Notes: generated from the sequence alone by a model not told the origin. Shown: positions 48 to 13,503, numbered from the stretch's first letter. The stretch is DNA of 24,890 bases from Tolypothrix carrinoi HA7290-LM1 (GCA_019358935.1 JAHHIK010000120.1:1-24890); one strand, 5' to 3'. A program made the numbers and translations.

Positions 48-444
48 CCCCACACCCTTGTTGTTGACGCTCTAATTGCGCCCCAACAAAATCAGCGTGT
101 TGAGGCGCAACCTTCCTTTGATGAGTCCCCGTACAAAAGTGTTGGGGCGCAAGTTATTAGTGATACTAAAAAAAGTGCGCCCCAACACGATACGAAACGC
201 GTGCGACCGCCATACTGAGGAAAGACCTACTCATTGGGTAGAAAAGTATTGGGTTGAAAGAGTTGGTAACAAGTATTGGTACTATCGTTACTGCTGGATG
301 GAGGGAAGGAAGAAAAACCGAATTTACATTGGGGCAGTGCGATCGCCAAAAGCCAATTTGAAAAAGCAGGCAGTAGAAGAAGCAATTCTTGACGGGCAAT
401 CTTTTCAGGAGATAAAGCAGCTAATCCGAGCGTTTAATAATTAG
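21..444 (+). pseudogene. 3' part of a cyanobacterial phage/plasmid-type hypothetical gene, frameshifted
   Basis: The frame of 21..218 (…SVGAQVISDTKKSAPQHD) joins the frame of 76..444 (THWVEKYWVERVGNKYWYYRYCWMEGRK…) if 37 bp bounded by a TAC duplication (191-193/228-230) are removed; the 5' end lies outside the window. Confidence 0.5.
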
Positions 445-823: not shown

Positions 824-1596
824 AAAGCGGCGATCGCTCCCTTAACTCGGTCACCTTTATAGGCAGAGGGGAAGGGGGCTCAAAGCAGCTCTTGAGCAAG
901 CCCAACCCCAACGAAGTGGAGCGAAGCGGAACATGGGTATGAAGCCCCGTCCTTCTTTGTCCGCTTGGCTGGGGCGGAGTACCACGGGACGTCGAGCGCC
1001 TCTCCCCCCCCCCCTGCTCCCTGCTCCCTGCTCCCCTGCCTCTTTTGACTATCAATTTCTACGTAACGCTCCAAAGCCTTAAAATCCTTGTGCCCGGTAA
1101 TTTTTTTGATGGTGTAAAGGTCAGTCCCGTTGCGGTGCAGCTTAGTGATAAAACTCCTTAGGGTGCTGTGAGTGCTGATGCCCTTAGCGGCAAGACCGGC
1201 TTTCTCGACGGCAGATCGGAGAATCATGTCAGCCCACCTGAGGGATATTGGTTTGTCGCCAGTGCGATCGGCAAACATCCTTTCTTGAATTTGACTCTGG
1301 CTTGTAGTTAGAGAGCGATTCTCTTAAAACCGCATGGACAAATACTTGACGGGTTTGACGTTTCCCGTCCGGGCTAGCTTTACGAGTCCGAGCGCGAAAA
1401 TTGATATAATCTCTAGGACTCTTATCCGGGTTGTAACAATCTTCAACCCGCAACTGTACCAGCGCCCCCCATCTTTCGCCGGTTCCTGTGCTAAATCTAA
1501 AAGCAGCTTATATTTTTTAGATTTAATTTGTTTACGGATTTTAGAGTAGTCAGAATCGGACAGGGTGGAAGCCTGTCCTTCTCGATCAATTTTCAT
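820..1596 (-). pseudogene. tyrosine recombinase/phage integrase, two frameshifts plus a 193-bp insertion
   Basis: Three frames give MKIDREGQA…LLLDLA / TGERWGALVQLRVEDCY… / …ISTHSTLRSF…ITGHKDFKALERYVEIDS, and the true C-terminus DRVKGAIAAL* lies at 820-852; catalytic R, H and Y motifs are recognisable, but HxxR reads HSTL. Confidence 0.9.
855..1047. mobile_element. 193-bp MITE-like composite insertion in the integrase 3' end
   Basis: Flanked by a 2-bp AC duplication (853-854, 1048-1049); near-terminal AGGCAG…CTGCCT inverted ends; contains CCCTGCT heptamer repeats; removal restores EIDSDRVKGAIAAL*. Confidence 0.7.
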
Positions 1597-1650: not shown

Positions 1651-1860
1651 TATTTTTGTATTTAGCTATTAGCTAAACTAGGGCGTCGGTCAAGTAATAG
1701 TGATTGACAAAAAAGAGATAATGTGGATTAGGAAAAACTAGTAAGAAAAGGATGCGATCGTTAACGCTCGTGCCGGTCAAGTAATTATGGTTGACAAACT
1801 AGATGTAATATGAATAGGGATTTACGAAAATCAATTGGGCATTATTTAGAGGTATAAATT

Positions 1861-3495
1861 ATGCGTCCCCCTTACTGGAATCCTCCCATTGAATTGTCAG
1901 AGGCAGAACAAGCTATCATTTCTCGGATTAAGAGGGCCAAACTATTTATATTTCTACGCCACAATCGTCACGACCTCTTTGATGAGGAGTTTCAAGCAAC
2001 TAAGCGCCACTATGTTCAAGGACAGTACAGTGGGTCAGTGTCCAGTTCCTCCAGCGCTGCTAGCACTGGCATTAATTTTACAAGCATATACCGGAGTTTC
2101 AGATGATGAAGTGATTGAGGCATTGGTAATGGATAGACGTTGGCAGCTGGTACTCGACTGTCACGATTGCCAAAAACCTCCATTCAGCAAAGGGACTTTG
2201 GTAAATTTTAGACAAGCGATGATAGACTTTGAAGTTGATCAGAGATTAATTGAGCGCACGGTAGAAATAGCTTTGCAGCAAGGTGGGTTTGGTTCAAGTA
2301 ACTTGAGGGCGGCACTCGACTCCTCGCCTTTATGGGGGGCGGCGAAAGTAGAAGATACATATAATCTCTTAGGTCATGCGCTGCGTAAAGCTGTAAGGTT
2401 AATGGCGCAGGCTTCGGAACAGTCAAGGGAGCAAGTAGCAATCATAAACACAACTAGATGCTCTAGTCACAGGCACTTCCCTCAAAGCCGCGTTAGATTT
2501 GAACTGGGATGATCCAACTGAGCGTTCAATAGCGTTAGAAAGCATTCTCAACGCTTTAGATCGGCTTGAGTCGGAGTTACAAAAAAAAACTGAAGATTCG
2601 GCGCTAACTGACGCTCAAGAAGTACTGGAAGTGGCGCGACAAATTCAATCCCAAAATGTAACTATTGATGAAATTGGGCAACCAATACTGAGTAAAGGTG
2701 TAGCTAAAGACCGCCGTATTTCCATTGAAGACCCAGATATGCGTCATGGGCGTAGCGCGGTACTAACGTTTTGATGGCTATAAGCGTCATGTACTTAGAG
2801 ATCTGGAGATTGGGGTAGTGCGCTCCGTTGGTTTGACAAGTGAAGACCGTTCCAGAGGCTCAAGTTACTGAGGCGATGGATGCAGATTTGAAAGCTCAGA
2901 ATGTGTTGCTGGTAGAGTTGCATATTGACCGCGCCTACCTGACGAGTCATTGGGTGCAACAACGTTCCCAGGACTTAACTATTTTCTGTAAAGCTTGGAC
3001 TGTACGTAATGGCGATCGCTTTATCAAGACAGACTTTGTATTGGACTGGGAGCAAGGTCTAATTCGTTGTCCTAATCATGTCAGTATCCCCTTTGAACCC
3101 GGAAAAACGGTTCACTTTCCCACGTCTTTTGTGTAGTGTGTGTCCTTTACGCGAACGTTGTACTACTTCTGTTAGAGGTCGCAATGTCTCAATTCATGAG
3201 GCAGTGCGTTGCGCGGGTTCCCCGCGTTGTAGCAACTGCCGTCCCGATGAAGCTTTTATGCAGGAATTACGTCAGCGCCAGGACACTGAATCCGGAAGAG
3301 CTAAACTCCGAGAACGTTCGCGCCTTAGTGCATACCTTGGCTCATGTAGGTCAATGGCAAGGCGACCGTGCCCGTTATACTGGCTTGCGTAAGAACTTAT
3401 TTGACTTACGGCGTGTAGCCGTTGTGCATAATCTCCACGTAATTGCACGGTTGTCATCTGGCGCTTCAAACCAACACGCCTTTTCAACCCCCTAG
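1861..3495 (+). pseudogene. IS1182-family DDE transposase, multiply frameshifted
   Basis: Fragments across several frames: DUF772-like LQAYTGVSDDEVIEALVMDRRWQ, ALDSSPLWGA, LHIDRAYL, Cys-rich CPNH…CSVCPLRERCT, and C-terminal HTLAHVGQWQGDRARY…HNLHV. Confidence 0.85.
3198..3242 (+). repeat. 45-nt structured dispersed repeat inserted in-frame in the transposase
   Basis: GAGGCAGTGCGTTGCGCGGGTTCCCCGCGTTGTAGCAACTGCCGT adds EAVRCAGSPRCSNCR between SIH and PDEAF; no target duplication. Confidence 0.8.
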
Positions 3496-3626
3496 TTAAC
3501 GATCGCATCCTTTTTTTCCTGGTTTTTCTCACTTCACATTATTTCTTTTTTGTCAATCACTATTACTTGACCGACGCCCTAGGCTCTAATGTAATCCCAG
3601 CAACAATCACAACGCCTCAGTAATTG

Positions 3627-3655
3627 TTCTGGATTTACATAAAACCGGAATATTT
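3627..3655. promoter_or_regulatory. second operator-like imperfect palindrome
   Basis: TTCTGGATTTA-CA-TAAAACCGGAA; AAACCGGAATATTT is identical at 1642-1655 and 3642-3655. Confidence 0.5.
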
Positions 3656-3714
3656 ACACTCTTAAAGACACCGATTAGAACGGATTAGTTACTTTAACTA
3701 CTCCATCTAAATTT

Positions 3715-4044
3715 ATGGCTGAATTAACCCTTCAACAAATTTTCGGTGCTAACGCCACGCAGACAGCCACAGAACTAGTTATTAAAAAGTCAGACTTACA
3801 AACAGTCGGCTTAACCGTTGCGGCTGACAATAGAGGAGAGCAACTGTTTGTAGCAATATTTGCCAAAGCTAAACAGGTTTTAAACAAAACCGCACAAGAA
3901 ACCAACCCAGATTTGCAAATTACAATCGAAACTGGTTATACAGCCATTGTCTTTCGCAACGATCAAGAGTACAAGCAAGTTAACTTTACCGTTGGATTAG
4001 AGAAGCTAGAAACCGCTTCTGGCATCGATCCGGATGACTATTAA
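3715..4044 (+). CDS. hypothetical prophage-like protein (109 aa), putative virion protein
   Basis: Clean ORF, first gene of a tightly packed co-oriented block; paralogous to the next gene. Confidence 0.75.
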   Translation: MAELTLQQIFGANATQTATELVIKKSDLQTVGLTVAADNRGEQLFVAIFAKAKQVLNKTAQETNPDLQITIETGYTAIVFRNDQEYKQVNFTVGLEKLETASGIDPDDY

Positions 4045-4411
4045 TTTAACGCTTGCACAGTGCTTTGGTAAAGGTGCAAGTCAAAATAGTGAAACTTTAA
4101 CAATACGTAAATCTGACTTGCCTGGATTAACTCCTGATGCTGAAAACCGGGCATAACAATTACTAGCAGCTTTATTTCTTAAGTTATTGGAAGAATTTTC
4201 AGGAAGCCTTAATGACCCTCAAGGAGAAAAAATTACCGACTCTCAAGGGCAAATAGTTACTTATGACAATTCGTCATTGTACGAAAGATTAAAATTGTTT
4301 TCTTGGCGAATTAATTTCATAACTCGCAATTCTTCTGTATACCGTCAACAAACAATAATCTGTCAGTTTTTTTTATTGAGAAACACAGAGTTCAATCCTG
4401 ATAACTTTTAA
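4034..4411 (+). pseudogene. paralog of the 3715..4044 gene with a premature TAA at 4154-4156
   Basis: MTINLTLAQCFGKGASQNSETLTIRKSDLPGLTPDAENRA*QLLAALFLK…FNPDNF aligns with MAELTLQQIFGANATQTATELVIKKSDLQTVGLTVAADNRGEQLFVAIFAK…IDPDDY; the stop sits where the paralog has Glu (GAA>TAA). Confidence 0.8.
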
Positions 4412-4418
4412 ATGTGCT

Positions 4419-5999
4419 ATGAAAATTTCCGGCTTTCCAGCAATTGCAACCGCAAATAATAATGATAAATTTCTGCTTGAGTCAGCCTCAAGCGGCGCAT
4501 TTCAACACATAACGAAAGCCAATTTCTTGTCTGGATTATCAACTGGTAGTTCTGGCGTTAGCTGGGAGAGACGCACAACTGACTTTGGCGTCACTAATGA
4601 CAATAAAGTTTTTCTTGATAATTCATCTGCTCTAACTATTACTTTCCCTGCTACTCCGACAAGTGGAATTGAAATTGAATTAGCTAGAAAAACAAATGTT
4701 AGTAAGGTAGTGTTGACTGGAATTGACAAACTAAACGGTGTTAGTATTGTTACCAACGACGAAATTCGTTTACTTTATTCTGCTAATTCAACTAAATTTA
4801 TTTATCTTGGTTCTGTTGACGGCTGGTATTCAATTCCTCAATCGGGAGTAAGAATTAAAAAACCATTATCTTTACCCACATCAACTTTAGCCCAGAAGTT
4901 TTACGCCCTTGATATTACCGGGCTTGCTAACAACGCAAGTATCGCACAGTGGAACGATACCAGCGGCAACAGTCGGCACGCAATTCAAGGAACAACTAAT
5001 CTTAAACCGATTTACAAAACTGGCATTTTTGACCCAGATTTACCCGCTGTAACTTTCGACGGGTCTAAATATTTAACTTTCGCTTCTACTTACTTATCCG
5101 GGGTTAAATACACAGTTGCTATTGTTGAAGCGCGGGCAAATAACGCTGCTACTAATTATTTATTTGGACAAGATAACGCGAGTGATAATCAAGCCTTGCA
5201 CGTTGGTTACAGGACTGATGGCAGTTTTACTCTTGCTCAATACAGCAATGATTTGGATGTTTCTATTGCTGGATATTCCGGCTTTAGTCCAAATATTTGG
5301 GTTGTTTCAAATAATTCTAGAGGCAAGGAAATTTGGCGAAACGGAAGTTTGATTGCTAGTTCCACAGATACAAATAATCTTACTTCTGGAACAAATGGTC
5401 GGATAGGTCGAGCGCTAAATAGTAACTTTAATGGGCATATTGGGCTATTAGCAACTTGGACGGGGGATAAATCCACTTCTGAAACAATTATTGGCGAGTA
5501 CGAGGAACTATTTAAGGCAAACTCAGAACTGTGTTTAGCCAAAAATAAAGAAATAGAAGCTTATATTTCCGTTCCGGATTATTGGCAAACTCGAAGTTTC
5601 CAAAAACCCCAATTATTAATTCAATTTGCTGAAAACTTAGGTGATGGTAAAATCGGACGCGGTAGGTGGTCGTTAGTAATTCCCCATTATCGATACGGTA
5701 AAAATCACAAACCAAATTTTCCTGACTTTGAAAAAGGTGATGTTAGAGGCATTCAAGTGTTAAACGATAACTCGCAAATTATTGTTTGGTGCAAGAGTGA
5801 AGCTGAATGCATAAGGGTTATAAACGCTTTTAAACAATATGTAGATCCCGACTACTTAAAAGGTATTTTACCAATTGAAACAGCTAAATATAACAGAAAA
5901 CTTAGAAATGTTTCAGTAACTCCTACTTTGTGTCAATTCTTTCCATTAGGGCAGAAAGATACGGTTCCAGAATGGAGTAGAAAGCTAAGAGACAAATGA
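4419..5999 (+). CDS. putative fibre/receptor-binding protein with LamG/ConA-like beta domain; probable deletion fusion to an unrelated C-terminus
   Basis: Ser/Thr/Asn/Gly-rich; IAQWNDTSGNSRHAIQ…PAVTFDG…IWRNG…IGRALNSNFNGHIG pattern; abrupt switch to charged/aromatic composition at about nt 5484. Confidence 0.6.
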   Translation: MKISGFPAIATANNNDKFLLESASSGAFQHITKANFLSGLSTGSSGVSWERRTTDFGVTNDNKVFLDNSSALTITFPATPTSGIEIELARKTNVSKVVLTGIDKLNGVSIVTNDEIRLLYSANSTKFIYLGSVDGWYSIPQSGVRIKKPLSLPTSTLAQKFYALDITGLANNASIAQWNDTSGNSRHAIQGTTNLKPIYKTGIFDPDLPAVTFDGSKYLTFASTYLSGVKYTVAIVEARANNAATNYLFGQDNASDNQALHVGYRTDGSFTLAQYSNDLDVSIAGYSGFSPNIWVVSNNSRGKEIWRNGSLIASSTDTNNLTSGTNGRIGRALNSNFNGHIGLLATWTGDKSTSETIIGEYEELFKANSELCLAKNKEIEAYISVPDYWQTRSFQKPQLLIQFAENLGDGKIGRGRWSLVIPHYRYGKNHKPNFPDFEKGDVRGIQVLNDNSQIIVWCKSEAECIRVINAFKQYVDPDYLKGILPIETAKYNRKLRNVSVTPTLCQFFPLGQKDTVPEWSRKLRDK

Positions 6000-6508
6000 G
6001 GGTTTTAGAACTTGATACAATCTTTGTTGTTAACGGACGGTTAGCTATCAAATTAAGTACTTTTGCTAAGTTACTACATTATTCCGATGTTTATTTATTA
6101 AAACTTATTAAAAAATTACTTAAACAGAAAATTAGAATAGGTTTTAAATACAAAAGAAATTGGTATATTTTTCTTCCTAAAAAACCAATTAGTTTGATTA
6201 TTGGAGAGAAAAATAAAAATCCTGCTGATAATCTTGCTACCACTTCATCTGGGGAAGATATCAACGTTGATTGGGCGGCAGCTGTTGAAGAATTTCCACC
6301 TGCTGTAAGTGATGCATTAGGTAATGCAAATTTTAATACCGTTATAGTCAACAACAAACTTGTGATGCCCACATCAACAACAACAAGTTTGGTTTCTTCG
6401 ACCCTAGTACCAAAGAATCAAACTTCGTTCATTCCTCTTAATTTGGGGACTTTTCCGGCTACAACGGATTACAAATACGGATATTACATTTTTTACCGAG
6501 AGGACAGA
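5996..6508 (+). CDS. hypothetical, basic N-terminus (possible DNA-binding); probably chimeric and read through into the 6509 gene
   Basis: ATGA overlap with the previous gene; Lys-rich first ~64 aa, then Ser/Thr-rich sequence; no stop before the internal start at 6509. Confidence 0.45.
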
Positions 6509-7018
6509 ATGAGTACGTTTGATCCCGGAACTAGCGGAACCCTTAAATCAACTCAAATTCCAGCGGCTTTTTTTGAAGTATGCCGCGCACTAGACGCAGC
6601 AGAAAATTTAAGAAATGGTGCTAACCCAGGTCTACCCCCACGCCGAAACCTTTCGACCACCGTTAGCTTTGACACAGGCACTATTGCTGTAGCTGCCACT
6701 ATTCCGGTTACTACTAGCATTCAAGCAAATGGTTCAATTGATATAGCTGCTAGCGATTATCTAGGAGCTACTTATTCGGTTTTTGCAAATGGCGGCGGCG
6801 ATCTTAACTCAGATACTCTCCCAGAAGCATTATTAGAACTGGCTAGTATTTTGGCTGCTGCTGAAAAAGCTGTAACCCCAGCTGAGAATCAACCAAACAA
6901 TGTTCAAATCCAATTTGACTTAGAAACTGGAAACGCTACAATAAGTGCCAACTTGCCTTTTAATACCGCGGCGGCTGCTAATGGCGATGTAACGATTCAC
7001 GCAATTGATTATCTCTAA
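6509..7018 (+). CDS. 169-aa tandem-duplicated-domain protein, putative virion structural protein
   Basis: Shine-Dalgarno GAGAGGA 4 nt before ATG 6509; two ~85-aa repeats, both ending in DYL. Confidence 0.65.
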   Translation: MSTFDPGTSGTLKSTQIPAAFFEVCRALDAAENLRNGANPGLPPRRNLSTTVSFDTGTIAVAATIPVTTSIQANGSIDIAASDYLGATYSVFANGGGDLNSDTLPEALLELASILAAAEKAVTPAENQPNNVQIQFDLETGNATISANLPFNTAAAANGDVTIHAIDYL

Positions 7019-7050
7019 CTTTTAGCAATTCACGGAGATAATTAAATACT

Positions 7051-7566
7051 ATGGCGACTCAAAGTAAAAAACGAGGTCCGCGTGCCACGGTTCTTTTTAA
7101 ATCAGGGACTGGGCAAGGTGCGGGAGCAAAATCGCAATATGTCTATATGCTTAAATCTGTGGCTGAAAAGCTGGGATTTAAAACTGTACCTGATGCAACA
7201 GTACCCCGCAAAGCAGGTAAAGGTGGCAAAGCGGGAACAGTTTCTGTTCGTGGTTCAGTTGGTGCAAAGCATATTAAAGTTCCCTTGGGTGGCAGTCGAA
7301 CAACTGCAAACGCAACTACAAAAAATGGCAATGCAGGAACGACAACACGTTACGTATCTGTACCAGTTCCTTCCGGCGCTAATATTAGCGACATTAAAAA
7401 GTTTTTAGGAACTGCTCAGAAAAATCCAACAATCGGATTGCTGCAAATGAACGAACGCTTCGGTATGCATATGGCTGCTTATGCCGAGCGCTTTGAGCAA
7501 ATTGATTATTTAATACACGCCCTTCAAGAGGAAATTGACCACAAGGCGGCAGCGGCTTTTGGGTGA
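7051..7566 (+). CDS. Lys/Gly/Thr-rich basic protein, probably fused at ~7432 to a coiled-coil remnant
   Basis: GGAG RBS upstream; highly basic N-terminal ~127 aa, then helical acidic tail LLQMNERF…ALQEEIDHK. Confidence 0.6.
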   Translation: MATQSKKRGPRATVLFKSGTGQGAGAKSQYVYMLKSVAEKLGFKTVPDATVPRKAGKGGKAGTVSVRGSVGAKHIKVPLGGSRTTANATTKNGNAGTTTRYVSVPVPSGANISDIKKFLGTAQKNPTIGLLQMNERFGMHMAAYAERFEQIDYLIHALQEEIDHKAAAAFG

Positions 7567-7622
7567 AATTAAAGAACTCAAAGGAGAGCTAAAGTCAAAG
7601 CAAAAATCGGATGAGGGTTAAG

Positions 7623-7804
7623 ATGCTATCAAAATTAACTGTTAGATCCGTAAGGAGTAATTATCCTGGTGATTGGGGCTTTTGTGTTGGCGATCGCCGA
7701 CCATAACTTCCGCCCAACTTTTGGAGATTTGGCGCTCAGTCGGTGTCGGTGGGTATTTAGGTCAACTACTGCCTGAGGCGAACAAGCGTCTTGGGGATTC
7801 ATAA
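7623..7804 (+). pseudogene. small membrane protein remnant (holin-like), frameshifted
   Basis: Pieces MLSKLTV / IILVIGAFVLAIADHNFRPTFGDLA / GVGGYLGQLLPEANKRLGDS* in different frames. Confidence 0.45.
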
Positions 7805-7864
7805 GTCCGTATTATAGTTAAGGCAGCCGCTTTCAAGCGATCGCCTTATCATTCATGTGGGGAT

Positions 7865-8434
7865 TCTGACTACTCAGTAGACTATCGCAAGCTGGACTAT
7901 GGCGACAACGACAACCTTGATATGCGAAAGCAAGTCTTGGAGTATCTTCAGCTCATGGGTTTGGAGTATACTTTAATTCTCAATGGGGCTTTTATGGATA
8001 ATGTTGGCACTCCCTACATGCCTCAGTTCGATTTTGATAATAATACGTTTCAATACTGGGGCGATGGTGAAACGCCTTTAGATTTCACCACAACCGACGA
8101 TACGGCTAAATATGTAGCAAAAGCGGTTACTGACCCAGATTTGGCAAATACAGCTTTGGAAGTCGCGGGTGATGTGCTGACGGCAAAACAGCTTAAAGCC
8201 GCTTACGAAGAAGCTACGGGCAACAAACTAAAGGAAAAGCCATTAGGCAGCGTGGCAGAGTTAAAAGCCTGGATTGCAGCCAAAAAACCGTCAGCTAATT
8301 CACCTGTAGATTATGTTCCTCAGCAGTACGAGTATACGATGGTATCTGGTAAAGGCAAACTCGACAACATTCAAAGCGATCGCTATCCCCATATCAAACC
8401 TCTAACAGTGCGGGAGTATCTCCAACAAACGTAG
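7865..8434 (+). pseudogene. NmrA/isoflavone-reductase-like SDR, N-terminally truncated
   Basis: SDYSVDYRKLDYGDNDNLDMRKQV…YTLILNGAFMD…YWGDGETPLDFTTTDDTAKYVA; Rossmann GxxGxxG half is absent; in-frame stop at 7802. Confidence 0.75.
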
Positions 8435-8719: not shown

Positions 8720-10273
8720 ATGAATGCGATTATCAATTTAAGTGCTACCGAAATCGCTCAAGCGATCGCCAAAAATGAACTCTCCGCAAGCGAGGTTGTT
8801 GAAGCGCACATTCAACGCATCGAAGCGGTAAACCCGCAATTAAATGCTGTAGTCGTCCCTTTATTTGAACAAGCACGCGCTGAGGCTGCTCGTGTAAAGG
8901 CGTTTGATGAAACGTCTCTGCATAAACCCCTGTACGGCGTACCCATCACCATTAAAGAATCTTTTGATGTCGCGGAGACTCCCACCACTGTTGGACTTAC
9001 TGAACTTGCTCACAGCAAAGCTACACATAACGCCGTGATGGTGGAACGCTTGCGACAAGCTGGGGCGATTATTCTCGGTAAAACCAACGTCCCGCATATG
9101 TGTTCGATGAACGAAACCGACAACCCAGTATACGGACGCACCAACAACCCTTGGAACTTAGAACGCGCTCCTGGGGGTAGTAGTGGCGGTGAGGCGGCTA
9201 TCATCGCCGCTGGTGGTTCACCGCTGGGGTTGGGAAGTGACATTGCTGGTAGTGTCCGTTTACCCGCGCAAGCTTGCGGAATTCACGGTTTCAAACCTAC
9301 ATCTAGAAGGCTAACTTTAGTTGGTCATGCGCCATTGTTTGCCGGACAGCAGGCGATAATTGCCCAACCGGGAGTAATGGCGCGTAGCGTTTGTGACCTC
9401 AGCCTAGCCATGAAAATTCTTGCCGCACCCGGTCAAGAAGCTTTTGATACTAATATTCCGCCCGTTCCCTGGTGCGAAGCAGACATACAAATAGAAAAAT
9501 TACGGATTGCTTTTTACACCGACAATGGCATTATTACCCCCTCCCCAGCAATTAGGCGGGTAGTGCGAGAAGCAGCCGAAGCGTTAGAAAAGCGCGGTGC
9601 AATAGTTGAAGAATGGACACCACCAGATTTACTGAAAGCTTCACAATTATACAACCAGTTGCTCACCGCTGATGGCTTTGCCACACTCAAAAGGCAAGTA
9701 GGTAGAAGTAAATGGCATTCGCGAATTAAGCAGTATTATCAACTAGCTGCAACGCCTAAAAAATTACTAAATAGTGTAGCTGCAATTAGTGGATTTTTTG
9801 GGCTGGATGATATGGCAAATAGTCTAGGTGCGGTTGGTGAATTATCTGTGACAGACTACTGGCGAGTAATTCATGAACGCGATCGCTACTGCACTAACTT
9901 TATGAAAGCGATGAATGCCAAGCAATACGACGCCATTATCTGTCCGCCTACAGCTTTACCAGCTTTGACACATAATAGCGGCTTTTTCCTCAGCGATGAT
10001 ACTAATTATACAAATCTCTACAACCTCTTAGGAATGCCTGCCGGTGTAGTTGCGGCTACTCGCGTGCGTAATGGGGAAGAAAGCGACAGAGAACCCCGTA
10101 AAAGCATAATTTCACGTACAGCTTACAAAGTTGAACAGGGGAGTGTCGGTTTACCCGTTGGTGTGCAAATTGCAGCGCGTCACTGGCATGAAGATGTAGT
10201 TTTAGCTGTCATGTCAGCACTAGAAGAACATTTTAAAGCACAACCTGATTATCCTGCTCATCCACCTGTGTGA
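8720..10273 (+). CDS. amidase-signature family enzyme (FAAH/aryl-amidase-like)
   Basis: GVPITIKES, ILGKTN, PGGSSGGEAA, GLGSDIAGSVRLPA (Lys-cisSer-Ser triad), GLPVGVQI. Confidence 0.92.
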   Translation: MNAIINLSATEIAQAIAKNELSASEVVEAHIQRIEAVNPQLNAVVVPLFEQARAEAARVKAFDETSLHKPLYGVPITIKESFDVAETPTTVGLTELAHSKATHNAVMVERLRQAGAIILGKTNVPHMCSMNETDNPVYGRTNNPWNLERAPGGSSGGEAAIIAAGGSPLGLGSDIAGSVRLPAQACGIHGFKPTSRRLTLVGHAPLFAGQQAIIAQPGVMARSVCDLSLAMKILAAPGQEAFDTNIPPVPWCEADIQIEKLRIAFYTDNGIITPSPAIRRVVREAAEALEKRGAIVEEWTPPDLLKASQLYNQLLTADGFATLKRQVGRSKWHSRIKQYYQLAATPKKLLNSVAAISGFFGLDDMANSLGAVGELSVTDYWRVIHERDRYCTNFMKAMNAKQYDAIICPPTALPALTHNSGFFLSDDTNYTNLYNLLGMPAGVVAATRVRNGEESDREPRKSIISRTAYKVEQGSVGLPVGVQIAARHWHEDVVLAVMSALEEHFKAQPDYPAHPPV

Positions 10274-10302
10274 AATCCCAAATCTAAAATCCAAAATCTA
10301 AA

Positions 10303-11247
10303 ATGATATTACCCGGCGCCCCTTGGTTAATTGCTCACAAATCCATGTTGAAAGTAAATAAACCTAAATTATTTACTATTTGTGGTCAAGATTATGTACT
10401 CTGGAAAAACGAAAAAGGTGAAATTTCCGCTTTAGAAAATATCTGCCCTCACATGGGTGCAAAGCTTTCTGATGGTTGGATTTGTTCGGATAATACAATA
10501 GCTTGTCCTTTTCATGCATTAGAATTTGACTCGGAAGGTAAAGCAATTTTACCAAGTGAAAAAACTTCAAAACCTCTCGCCAAACAACTTAAGTTATTTT
10601 TGCAAGGTGATTTTATTTGGACTTACGCGAATCAAGAACCAAAGCTGACCATTCCAGATATTCTGGAAAAGCTATCAACTCAGTTTCGGTTTATCGGTGT
10701 GGCTGGAGATGTAACTATAAAAGCACCTTTTCTTGATGCATTAGAGATTAATCATGATGTAAATCACGCCAAAGGTACTCATAGAGAACTTTTTAGAATC
10801 AAAGAAACAATAGTTAATGACTTTCAAGCTAATAATTATTTTTCTGTCTCTACTATCAAGCACATTAGAGATAAAAATACTCTGAATGAGTACTTACAGA
10901 ATATAGCTTTACTATTTACTCCTAATCCGGTGGAAATAGTTCTAGAAAATTACTTTCCATCTTTTGTGGTTGTTTATAGTGATTCACCGTTGGGGAAACT
11001 TGTGCAAGTGTTCACCATATATCCACAAAACAAAAACACAACGCGCATATTTATCCCACTATTTACTGAAAAATCCTTTGGTATTTTTAACTCAATTCTT
11101 GAACCACCAACTATTAAAGCTATGGAAGAAGTAATTCGGCAAGATGTGACGATGCTGGAAAATCTTTATCCAAGATTTGAACCGAAAATTAGGCTTTCTC
11201 ATGAAGAACCTTTACATTGGGTTCGTCAGCTTTATCACAATTGGTAA
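10303..11247 (+). CDS. Rieske non-heme iron oxygenase alpha subunit
   Basis: CPH…CPFH Rieske ligands; NHDVNHAKGTH mononuclear Fe motif; C-terminal QD acid. Confidence 0.9.
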   Translation: MILPGAPWLIAHKSMLKVNKPKLFTICGQDYVLWKNEKGEISALENICPHMGAKLSDGWICSDNTIACPFHALEFDSEGKAILPSEKTSKPLAKQLKLFLQGDFIWTYANQEPKLTIPDILEKLSTQFRFIGVAGDVTIKAPFLDALEINHDVNHAKGTHRELFRIKETIVNDFQANNYFSVSTIKHIRDKNTLNEYLQNIALLFTPNPVEIVLENYFPSFVVVYSDSPLGKLVQVFTIYPQNKNTTRIFIPLFTEKSFGIFNSILEPPTIKAMEEVIRQDVTMLENLYPRFEPKIRLSHEEPLHWVRQLYHNW

Positions 11248-11283
11248 GCTTTAAGCGCTTAAGCGCTTACTACGAATTTTTAT

Positions 11284-12555
11284 ATGACTCATTTTGGTAT
11301 TGTTTGTCCGAGTGTTCCAGGACATCTTAATCCGATGATGGCGTTGGGTCAAGAACTTCAACAACGGGGACATCGGGTGACTTCGATAAACTTTTTGGAT
11401 GCAGAAGCAGCAGCACAAGCAGCAAAAATTGAATTTCAAGCGTTCGCTCAAAATGAATATCCTCTCGGAAGAACCGCAGAGTTACAAAAAATTGATGGCG
11501 AATTAAGCGGTTTGGATGCTCTCAAATTCACGTTTAAAATATTCAAAGAATTAGGACTTTTAAGGCTGCAATATATTCCTACAGTGATTCAATCAGCTGG
11601 TATCGACGCATTGTTAGTCGATCAAACTTGTTTTGAAGGCGGGGCGATCGCAGACCATCTAAAAATTCCTTTTATCACTATCTGCAATGCTTTAATGGCT
11701 AATGCAGAACCTAATATACCACCTTTGGTAACAAGTTGGCGTTATCAACCTGTTTGGTGGGCAAGATGGCGAAATCAAATCGGTCATAAATTATTTAACT
11801 TGTTTATCTCACCCAGTTTCCAAACAATCCAAACTTATCGCAAACAGTGGAATTTGCCACTCTATTCTCAAATTAGCGATATGTGGTCAACTTTAGCACA
11901 AATTAGTCAACAACCGGATGTATTTGACTTTCCGCGTCAGCAACTTCCCGAATGTTTTCACTATACAGCACCTTTTGTTAACCCAAATGCCCGTAAACCT
12001 GTAAACTTTCCTTGGGAGAAGTTAGACGATCGCCCTTTAATTTACGCTTCAATGGGAACGTTGAAAAATCAGCTTGTGGAAGTTTTTGGTGCGATCGCTT
12101 TTGCTTGTGCAGATTTAGATGCTCAATTGGTGATATCTTTAGGCGGTACTTTAACTGCGGATGCGTTGGGAGAATTACCCGGTTCACCGTTGGTAGTTAG
12201 TTTTGCACCGCAATTAGAGTTACTGCAAAAAGCAAGTCTTTGTATCACCCACGCAGGCTTAAACACTGTGTTGGAATCACTGAATGCAGGTGTGCCAATG
12301 GTTGCTATCCCTATCGGTGACGACCAACCGGGGATTGCTGCCAGATTAAAGTATGTTGGTGCAGGTGAGTTTATTGAGTTGGATAATTTAAATCCCAATC
12401 AGTTAAAAAGCTTGGTGCTTCATGTGTTGACGAATGATTTATATCGCCAAAATGCACGTAGATTGAAAGAAGCGATCGCGCTTGTTAATGGTGTCAAACT
12501 TGCTGCTGATATTATCTCAGAAGCGATCGCCTTCTCTACTCCACAGCTTTTATAA
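11284..12555 (+). CDS. GT1 UDP-glycosyltransferase (MGT/CrtX-like)
   Basis: GHLNPM, YASMGT, APQLELL…ITHAGLNTVLESLNAGVPMVAIPIGDDQ (PSPG-like box). Confidence 0.92.
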   Translation: MTHFGIVCPSVPGHLNPMMALGQELQQRGHRVTSINFLDAEAAAQAAKIEFQAFAQNEYPLGRTAELQKIDGELSGLDALKFTFKIFKELGLLRLQYIPTVIQSAGIDALLVDQTCFEGGAIADHLKIPFITICNALMANAEPNIPPLVTSWRYQPVWWARWRNQIGHKLFNLFISPSFQTIQTYRKQWNLPLYSQISDMWSTLAQISQQPDVFDFPRQQLPECFHYTAPFVNPNARKPVNFPWEKLDDRPLIYASMGTLKNQLVEVFGAIAFACADLDAQLVISLGGTLTADALGELPGSPLVVSFAPQLELLQKASLCITHAGLNTVLESLNAGVPMVAIPIGDDQPGIAARLKYVGAGEFIELDNLNPNQLKSLVLHVLTNDLYRQNARRLKEAIALVNGVKLAADIISEAIAFSTPQLL

Positions 12556-13366: not shown

Positions 13367-13503
13367 GGATAGGATTTTCGAGTGTAAAAGCCTCAAATCG
13401 TGAATTTGCGTTTTTTATGACGAATGTTTCTATATTGTTCCAGTCTGTGAAAGCGATCGCTATTTTAATGCAGCTTCTGGTCTAAACTAGCAAAGAAGCT
13501 AAG

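Follow-up and report, generated by a model that had tools for sequence, protein, structure and literature searches.

The question raised by the gene block at positions 3715-7804 of a 24,890-nucleotide stretch from Tolypothrix carrinoi HA7290-LM1 (GCA_019358935.1, JAHHIK010000120.1:1-24890; the whole stretch is called the window below) is what kind of genetic unit it descends from. A reading made from the sequence alone (hereafter the sequence-only reading) had taken it for the virion-like part of a relic of a small temperate virus, the hallmark genes of which may simply have been deleted. Following comparison with intact relatives, we are confident that the source is a mobile circular element with RNA-guided integration, its putative guide RNA being recognised by its complementarities. 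We also consider it probable that the block is the decayed right arm of a member of a family of circular, integrative cyanobacterial replicons, in which genes A-K make up a virus-like particle and host-recognition module.

A conserved element and its decayed copy

An intact paralog of the element is present in the same genome, on contig C79. Its block is divergent from a gene for a 193-aa recombinase and encodes A (109 aa), B (123 aa), a fibre that has a lectin domain of F5/8 type C, D, and a collagen-repeat protein E of 668 aa, the last 181 residues of which are 71% identical to the end of the window protein o3. These are followed by F (347 aa, 68% identical to the window protein o4) and, downstream of it, by a basic protein G, H, a collagen/PTR fibre I, J and K. 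The same gene order was found in loci from 4 public genome records, 16 related-genome regions and 5 metagenome contigs (about 25 in all), as mapped by BLAST and clustering from public genome records, 20 regions from related genomes, and metagenome contigs. In the recurring arrangement, the right arm forms a single operon, A-B-(variable fibres)-D-E-F-G-H-(I)-J-K, where I is not always present and J and K are small membrane proteins; the gene for the small recombinase is divergent from this operon and often adjoins that of a cell-wall enzyme. The left arm consists of an IS110-like gene (cluster c6), small acidic genes, and a basic gene of 100-120 aa divergent from a cI-like helix-turn-helix (HTH) regulator (PF01381, E 1.5e-9), after which come one or two more genes, small open reading frames (ORFs) and, in some loci, an amidase or Tlde1-like gene; 5 mapped loci also have a membrane P-loop ATPase (c23) among their left-arm genes. 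Eight copies could be delimited, and these span 9,190-12,660 bp.

On the window, the element and its borders comprise the following features (c7 and c14 are clusters, o1-o5 are ORFs of the block).

76-444, plus strand: C-terminal part of a c7 gene (W-x-E-x-Y...YYRYC motif), 43% identical to the C-terminus of a 257-aa protein of locus L012
662-823, minus strand: small c14 ORF of 53 aa adjoining the recombinase gene, clustering with ORFs of 53-57 aa at the same position in 9 gene calls elsewhere
880-1596, minus strand: pseudogene, in three frames, of an Xer-like tyrosine recombinase of about 190 aa (PF00589, E 1.8e-8 on one piece)
1679-3581, plus strand: insertion sequence (IS) remnant with a frameshifted DUF772-type transposase (PF05598, E 6.3e-12)
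3715-4044, plus strand: gene A (o1), 109 aa, acidic (isoelectric point, pI, 4.5), 51-94% identical to A of other loci
4034-4411, plus strand: gene B (o2), a paralog of A with an in-frame TAA at 4154-4156 (from translation and alignment with other loci)
4419-5999, plus strand: o3, fibre-like, 526 aa, with an N-terminal anchor-like motif, a LamG-like middle and an E-type C-terminal domain (DNA 5448-5996)
5996-7018, plus strand: gene F (o4), 340 aa, with a winged-helix N-domain, a small alpha/beta domain and 2 repeats, in ATGA overlap with o3
7051-7566, plus strand: o5, 171 aa, pI 10.2, a fusion of a basic G-type protein (N-terminal ~130 aa) with the C-terminal 35 aa of J
7623-7804, plus strand: gene K, a small signal/transmembrane protein, in three frames (two frameshifts), with three tblastn pieces 95-100% identical to K71
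7857-7866, plus strand: right end of the element (GTGGGGATTC), a motif common to relatives and joined to the left end in L038 and L042
7867-8434, plus strand: 3' part of an NmrA-like host gene (PF05368, profile positions 122-269 only)

Judged by alignment with these loci, positions 3715-7804 are the decayed right arm of a conserved 9-13 kb element, and a nonsense codon, a deletion-fusion, frameshifts and an IS insertion mark the window copy as a relic. Gene H and the start of J have been deleted, producing the o5 fusion; o5 clusters with the G proteins (c5), its residues 137-171 are 63% identical to J101, and window positions 7431-7801 align with the J/K DNA of locus L009. The recombinase survives as three pieces that match the Int193 of an intact copy at 69-95%, and a 1.9-kb IS remnant separates it from the spacer before gene A, at a point where L026 is uninterrupted (6820 to 6823). 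The contig starts inside the element, its c7 fragment occupying a left-arm position at which c7 is found in 15 mapped loci.

Several features reported in the sequence-only reading were recovered, some in a modified form. All ORFs of the block lie on the plus strand with short overlaps or gaps between neighbours, so that o1-o5 and the membrane-protein gene are indeed packed and co-oriented. The block is AT-richer, with a GC content of 0.33-0.39 across 3501-6500 compared with 0.42-0.53 in most other bins of the window, and HIP1 (GCGATCGC), of which the window contains 28 copies where shuffles expect 0.17, is absent from 3020 to 7689, an interval in which about 6.5 would be expected at the density of the rest of the window (Poisson P(0) ~0.002). 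The two small paralogs exist, with the qualification that o2 carries a stop codon; the very basic protein is a fusion; the small membrane protein can only be read by using three frames; and the divergent tyrosine integrase gene does lie on the minus strand, yet in three frames and with the IS remnant in between.

Database searches with the block itself were largely silent. No Pfam family exceeded its cut-off for any of the 7 block ORFs, NCBIfam gave no match for o1, o3, o4 or o5, and the sole PHROGs match among the block ORFs was that of o3 (residues 163-384) to phrog_10356, a 'virion structural protein' (E 7.5e-9). The lectin-type fibre proposed in the sequence-only reading consequently stands on this PHROGs match and on LamG-domain proteins at the equivalent position in relatives (Laminin_G_3 of Pfam, E 4.6e-19, in the L031 protein), whereas o3 itself has no Pfam lectin match. 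The tandem-domain character of o4 was borne out by an AlphaFold2 model, which predicts two repeats of a helix plus three strands. Gene A is without a match in Pfam, PHROGs, NCBIfam or PDB profiles, and its family appears so far to be limited to these elements.

Relatives of the element are patchily distributed. Of 388 other genomes in the family, 28 contain F (E<=1e-20), with at most 3 copies per genome, and an order-wide sample gave matches in 21 of 401 genomes including that of the window (E<=1e-5), those outside its own genome covering the C-terminal tandem domain only. Clustering of F at 90% identity yields 89 clusters, all named ones being 'hypothetical protein', and at 50% identity 470 representatives, mostly stand-alone forms of 160-170 aa.

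Further traces of decay are scattered through the genome. The right-end motif GGGGATTC occurs twice in the window, 66 bp apart: the first copy (7793-7800) falls within the 3' end of K, at the point where relatives with a K gene end, and the second (7859-7866) forms the NmrA-like junction. The intervening 66 bp may be the remnant of an earlier or partial insertion. Solitary J and/or K remnants are present on contigs C119, C122, C145, C15, C167, C2, C21, C22, C40, C47, C55 and C59, the K remnants being up to 98% identical, and recombinase fragments on C102, C119, C162, C37 and C21; contig depth over these scattered parts is 2-8 times that of unique DNA (run X1). In a contig of run X3, the I/J boundary is joined directly to the spacer upstream of A (L009 10480 to 16731), representing a relative that has lost the A-I block entirely but retains the recombinase and J/K. 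It seems that right-end stubs either outlast deletion or originate from partial excision. Elsewhere in the window, short tandem repeats (GGGAGTT then CCCTTTT units) occupy 450-540, between the end of c7 and c14, and host metabolism genes lie at 8720-12555, including an amidase (PF01425, E 1.7e-107), a Rieske oxygenase and a UDP-glycosyltransferase.

Ends, circles and insertion site

The right end, (C/T)TGGGGATTC, directly follows J/K in all 15 loci (14 of 15 in the first search, the 15th later). The left end, in which TTC is followed across the boundary by A(C/G)T(C/T)TA(G/A), was found in 13 of the 15 loci and contigs listed, sits 10-300 bp past the 3' end of the IS110-like gene, and is also present on contig C49 of the window's own genome. 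In two metagenome contigs, L038 (13,189 bp) and L042 (14,437 bp), J/K runs into the IS110-type gene across GGGGATTC/AGTCTA, and the length of each contig equals one unit. A third contig, L045 (7,298 bp), has an exact terminal repeat of 127 bp, giving a unit of 7,171 bp, and L046 wraps round the L045 sequence; this circle encodes a candidate replicase, an E-like and an H-like protein, F, G and J.

The two halves of the host gene disrupted by the window copy could be brought together. The 5' part of the NmrA-like gene (profile positions 2-106) lies at G000:C49:55213-55557, adjoining the left end and the IS110-type gene of the window copy, which is a pseudogene in three pieces. The insertion site within the NmrA-like gene is TTTATTCCTTC/TGACTACTCA, the joined host halves read F-I-P-S-D-Y-S-V in frame, and TTC is the only sequence common to both junctions. 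For the C79 copy, none of the contigs from sequencing runs showed a right-end/left-end junction.

An RNA-guided recombinase of the IS110 type

The terminal gene of the element encodes an IS110 family transposase, as shown by matches to NCBIfam NF051857 in all four sequences tested (431-539 bits, against a cut-off of 180); in L012, matches to PF01548 and PF02371 are weak, PF01548 being below its cut-off. Upstream of this gene and on its own strand, about 230 nt are conserved in 12 loci, and we identify four segments within them that resemble the parts of a guide. The first is complementary to the core and right flank of the element's own target (e.g. CAATAGAA, TACCGGGAA, TAGATTGAA, TAGTCAGAA), and the second, 15-28 nt further on, is a copy of the target's left flank and core (GCATTTTC, GCCTTTTC, CCATCTTC, TTTATTCCTTC). 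The third is complementary to the joined ends and changes together with the left end, while the fourth is a GGGUGAUUC motif resembling the right end. In all 7 loci compared, the donor-matching segment covaries with the left end (AAAGTGAAT with ACTTT, GAGTGAATC with ACTCT, AGACTGAAT with AGTCT). The agreement between guide and target is specific to each copy: the non-coding RNA (ncRNA) of 6 loci matches its own attB over 8-11 nt beyond the core, and that of the window/C49 copy matches its own target over 14 nt, whereas none of the 42 pairings of an ncRNA with a target not its own exceeds 4 nt (the core served as anchor in scoring, and the C49 left flank was offset by one base in the 42-pair comparison). 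The ncRNA has no match in Rfam.

These observations point to a mechanism of which we are confident. The element in its circular form, in which the right end ...GGGGATTC is joined to the left end ACTCTAG..., is integrated by the IS110-type recombinase; donor and target share only TTC, and the guide RNA has segments that match the target flanks and the end-junction in the fashion of a bridge RNA. The NmrA-like gene was accordingly hit because the guide of the window copy specified it, and the copy that entered it then decayed.

The start of the conserved RNA has a further unusual property. It reads CCGC-CUGAnGA-stem-GAAAC-stem-GUC/GCGG, with pairing between loop II and the 3' tail, which is the layout of a type-I hammerhead, and the letters of the hammerhead core (CUGAnGA ... 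GAAA ... GUC) are invariant or nearly so among 12 sequences. In the 12-sequence alignment 79.7% of cells pair, as opposed to 31-43% in slid controls; 12 of the 24 pairs change on both sides, the covarying stems are II and III, and none of 500 shuffles reaches the covariation score. Rfam hammerhead models gave no match at the gathering score in 7 sources and none at E<=1 on L012 1400-2000. The motif was located as follows.

L012:1554-1807, L028:3953-4205 and L020:4045-4298, each on the minus strand, and 9 more: hammerhead-like motif and guide RNA, the motif lying directly 5' of the guide RNA
C12:2042-2095, C98:24349-24402, C102:5003-5058 and C127:17109-17160: four complete copies of the hammerhead-like motif in the window's own genome

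All four of these own-genome contigs have matches to the IS110-type gene. Cleavage at the predicted position (the slash above) would leave a guide RNA beginning at GCGG. We did not find a ribozyme-released guide RNA in the literature searched, where the accessible part of one paper treats bridge RNA, IS110 and hammerhead separately.

The small tyrosine recombinase and exchangeable modules

The sequence-only reading implied that the tyrosine recombinase integrates the element, and here our results differ. This recombinase is internal to the element, about 190 aa long and Xer-like, its intact homolog matching XerA, XerC and XerD models below all cut-offs. The element's ends and its insertion sites agree instead with an RNA-guided recombinase of the IS110 type, and we conclude that the tyrosine recombinase does not integrate the element; direct repeats of at least 13 nt matching the element ends were not found flanking any of the 8 loci searched. 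Between the recombinase gene and A lie near-perfect palindromes of 13-19 nt with a centre of 1-2 nt (L009:16854-16888, L012:6810-6849, L021:12781-12808), the window spacer having only an imperfect palindrome of 10 nt. These palindromes may act as an operator or as a (dif-like) site for the recombinase itself; that they serve as a dif-like resolvase site is a guess. An invertible promoter switch run by the small recombinase was also considered and rejected, no flanking inverted repeats having been seen.

While the A-K/F core is constant, the integration and replication modules change among relatives. L031 and L039 carry DnaB-N plus an AAA_25 helicase, L034 and C15 carry D5/VapE-type primase-helicases (DUF3854/D5_N/DUF5906 or VapE), and L045 encodes a candidate prim-pol of 470 aa, without a family match, whose DxD and sGxH-like motifs were judged by eye. 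In the 13.5-kb variant L039, a tyrosine integrase of 374 aa and the DnaB-like helicase replace the IS110 module, and the unit is bounded by a 46-bp direct repeat (1-45 and 13426-13471) corresponding to the 3' part of a tRNA. In this variant, then, a different integration system evidently serves the same structural block. We considered L039 as a circle and set this aside, since its 46-bp terminal repeat is tRNA-derived and an att-bounded unit is equally possible. The window's own genome also contains a second type of element, of about 19 kb (C15:80200-99300; L010, L035), encoding a 369-aa integrase, a DUF3854/VapE primase-helicase, a regulator of the LuxR type, a 604-aa protein and membrane proteins, as well as an endolysin, a stand-alone F of 166 aa, a fibre tip and homologs of J and K. 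A relative of this element type is the 20.8-kb plasmid pMIC7113.08 (NC_019743.1) of a cultured strain, which carries F, the small recombinase and C15-type genes and is typed as non-mobilizable.

These plasmid connections bear on an explanation in which the element is plasmid-like cargo of an IS110 transposon, with A-K acting as surface fibres, adhesins or a bacteriocin-like killing or lysis module. We regard this as quite unlikely, although it has real attractions: IS110 elements are reported to grow to about 100 kb, chiefly by plasmid-derived DNA, in the accessible part of 10.64898/2026.08.14.744561, a related gene set resides on the non-mobilizable pMIC7113.08, small membrane proteins and an FtsK-like membrane P-loop ATPase are found in some left arms, and there is neither an episomal excess nor evidence of a capsid. 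Set against this, a core that stays constant while the IS110 module is replaced (L031, L034, L039, C15) is a poor fit to accidental cargo, Pfam scans showed no relaxase, type IV secretion, partition or resistance genes, and lectin or collagen fibres with homology to phage fibres, accompanied by cell-wall hydrolases, would be unusual for a plasmid.

A putative particle and host-recognition module

Reading A-K as a particle or adsorption module accounts best for three observations: it has fibre domains in common with phage fibres, the block is accompanied by small membrane proteins and cell-wall enzymes, and the A-K/F core is kept while the integration and replication modules swap. Across the intact loci the fibres contain collagen, PTR, LamG, F5/8-C and minor-tail C-terminal domains. 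The o3 and LamG proteins match virion and baseplate families of PHROGs, fibre I has a Pfam PTR domain and a minor-tail C-terminus (phrog_3285, E 3.8e-11), and E, which also has an Ala/Gly-zipper hydrophobic segment, matches tail-fibre families largely via its collagen repeats. Cell-wall enzymes include an Amidase_3 in L038 (E 4.7e-26), an endolysin family member (phrog_33083, E 6e-12) directly after the F, J and K homologs of the C15 element, and a Tlde1-like protein beside the recombinase that is below the Pfam cut-off and whose cluster (c17) occurs in 5 mapped loci.

Under this interpretation, A-K would provide a small temperate virus-like element with its extracellular particle and its apparatus for recognising hosts. 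Adsorption would depend on carbohydrate-binding and collagen fibres, which can be exchanged with the fibre domains of phages, and DNA would be condensed by G. The envelope would be breached by J/K together with an amidase, an endolysin or the Tlde1-like protein; the role of a membrane-active spike or of an ejection protein could fall to E, and a capsid, if there is one, would have an unrecognised fold.

A number of results weigh against this interpretation and have to be set beside it. Searches with Pfam (198 protein queries) and PHROGs (96), intact loci included, found no capsid, portal, terminase or packaging ATPase in any copy. When 18 loci were scanned for Walker A motifs, the core elements of L012, L021 and L028 contained none, and the membrane P-loop ATPase (c23) is in the gene calls of just 5 mapped loci. 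AlphaFold2 models of F and of the E C-terminal domain contain neither a jelly-roll nor an HK97 fold. IMG/VR contained no relatives of F (searched as a single protein and as an alignment) or of the A alignment, tblastn against 50,697 phage genomes gave no match for F, A, the E C-terminus or H, and about 29 spacer units from three candidate CRISPR arrays in the own genome gave no credible match, the longest being 19 nt. With regard to circularity, L038 and L042 could be tandem copies (11,986 of 13,189 bp and 13,710 of 14,437 bp were examined), and unique parts of the C79 copy have a depth of about 523-546 compared with 539-593 for the host flanks in one run, giving no episomal excess.

Further searches were similarly sparing. 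The same queries revealed no HK97 capsid, tube or sheath; no Zot family match was found, L038, L042 and L045 having been scanned in part and by Pfam only; and the sole tape-measure match is weak (phrog_167, E 8.7e-4) and belongs to the distant locus L033. The models of F and the E C-terminal domain matched nothing in PDB or BFVD, PDB profile searches with H, F and A returned nothing below E 0.1, and o3 likewise has no relatives in IMG/VR. H is a small beta protein with a poor ESM Atlas model (predicted local distance difference test 0.47) that resembles sandwiches like those of carbohydrate-binding modules at a template modelling (TM) score of about 0.5. The predicted fold of A resembles a cluster in which 76% of proteins are from Uroviricota (TM 0.67/0.71, ESM Atlas), which should be taken as a lead only. 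The three CRISPR arrays were the plausible ones among 16 repeat candidates. Neither the spacer matches nor, in the two proteins modelled, the capsid fold that the sequence-only reading had suggested seeking came to light.

That reading had recognised no terminase, portal, HK97 capsid, tape measure or Zot ATPase, and the intact copies lack them too in Pfam and PHROGs searches. This removes its suggestion that the hallmark genes were simply deleted, given that complete 9-13 kb copies and circular forms lack them as well, and the syntenic loci collected are not non-mobile chromosomal loci without an integrase. What persists of its overall proposal is a relic of a small, integrative and patchily distributed element that may be viral. 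The same evidence makes it extremely improbable that the block is all that remains, at the tail-fibre and lysis end, of an ordinary tailed prophage after deletion of its head and tail genes. Collagen/PTR fibres and holin-like small membrane proteins do resemble a distal siphovirus morphogenesis module, and the window copy is visibly decayed, but eight copies of 9.2-12.7 kb, two joined-end contigs and a circular 7.2-kb genome are all without head or tail genes.

A phage satellite deserves separate consideration. In this scenario, which we consider unlikely, the element would be packaged in virions of a helper tailed cyanophage, and A-K would supply fibres, adaptors and lysis proteins that retarget or exploit the helper. 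The backbone of an integration gene, a cI-like HTH regulator and, in relatives, a primase-helicase or VapE-type replicases within 7-13 kb is what a satellite would be expected to have, the fibre domains are common to tailed phages, and the Uroviricota-like predicted fold of A would agree with it. Yet no homolog of a small terminase, capsid-size or packaging-redirection protein was recognised; since A, the E C-terminus, F and H have no homolog in the 50,697 phage genomes, these provide no candidate helper sharing attachment parts; and the core E-F-G-H-J persists even in the 7.2-kb circle with its own replicase candidate. To our knowledge, no satellite encoding its own fibres has been described.

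Returning to the particle and host-recognition module, which we prefer, its stronger versions call for more caution. That A-K is an autonomous virus-like particle module is conceivable, the balance of evidence being somewhat against it. More doubtful is that these elements might constitute a new group of small temperate cyanobacterial viruses or self-sufficient particle-forming agents, with a virion built of E, F, G, H and J proteins of unknown fold, and with programmable, RNA-guided IS110 lysogeny in which the guide RNA is freed by a hammerhead ribozyme.

Relationship to known systems

The closest parallels to the integration system are the IS110/IS621 elements, for which the bridge RNA principle has been established (PMC11208160, accessible part). 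Shared features are a recombinase with DEDD/RuvC-like and Tnp domains (NF051857), an upstream ncRNA with separate target and donor segments, a very short common core, and a circular form in which the right end is joined to the left. The core of IS621 is CT, and the loop geometry of the bridge RNA is known for IS621-type systems. The elements described here differ in their TTC core, their cyanobacterial host range, the hammerhead-like ribozyme that precedes the guide RNA, and their cargo, a 9-13 kb replicon that is conserved in synteny across cyanobacterial families and comprises a regulator, a resolvase-like recombinase, fibres and genes of lysis type. Large cargo-carrying IS110 elements of up to about 100 kb, some barely distinguishable from small plasmids, have been reported in an August 2026 preprint (10.64898/2026.08.14.744561), and the accessible part of that preprint mentions neither cyanobacteria nor hammerheads or ribozymes.

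Among viruses, the Neisseria Nf/MDA filamentous prophages (~8 kb) carry an IS110 transposase at one end (PMC7058167, accessible part). A small temperate viral genome with a terminal IS110-family transposase is thereby comparable to the present element and its terminal IS110 gene, although no Zot-type ATPase or coat protein is recognised in the latter and its fibres are of the collagen and lectin type. Nf/MDA phages are inoviruses with a rolling-circle replication Rep, a small coat protein and a Zot-type ATPase. P4-like satellites and phage-inducible chromosomal islands (PICI) have a backbone of integrase, repressor and primase or replicase and no capsid or terminase genes. The present elements likewise combine a size of 7-13 kb with an integration-regulator-replicase backbone and no capsid or terminase genes, while differing in their RNA-guided IS110 integration, their large conserved block of fibre-like and unknown proteins, and the lack of recognisable packaging-hijack genes. 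Finally, Plasmaviridae L2 and PM2-like Corticoviridae are circular, integrating viruses of about 10-12 kb with small membrane proteins and a large spike-like protein. The circle, size, integration, small membrane proteins, spike-like large protein and absence of terminase and portal are all likenesses; the present element differs in that the searches revealed neither a double jelly-roll capsid nor a packaging ATPase of the FtsK/HerA type, and no sequence or fold similarity to L2 or PM2-like viruses was detected, two proteins (F and the E C-terminal domain) having been modelled.

What appears new in relation to these systems is a ribozyme-headed guide reprogrammed from copy to copy, and a virus- or plasmid-like replicon with a dark structural module; the IS110 subgroup itself may already be listed in bridge-RNA papers or preprint supplements. 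RNA-guided IS110 recombinases are of great current interest, there are hardly any descriptions of natural cases in which one acts as dedicated integrase for a coherent replicon of virus- or plasmid-like character, and the copy-by-copy match of guide and target offers a ready set of naturally reprogrammed guides. The block, for its part, represents a sizeable protein family without known fold or function, accompanied by fibres and lysis-type genes in ecologically important filamentous cyanobacteria. If its proteins do form particles, they would represent an unrecognised kind of cyanobacterial virus, one that hallmark-based virus finders might miss.

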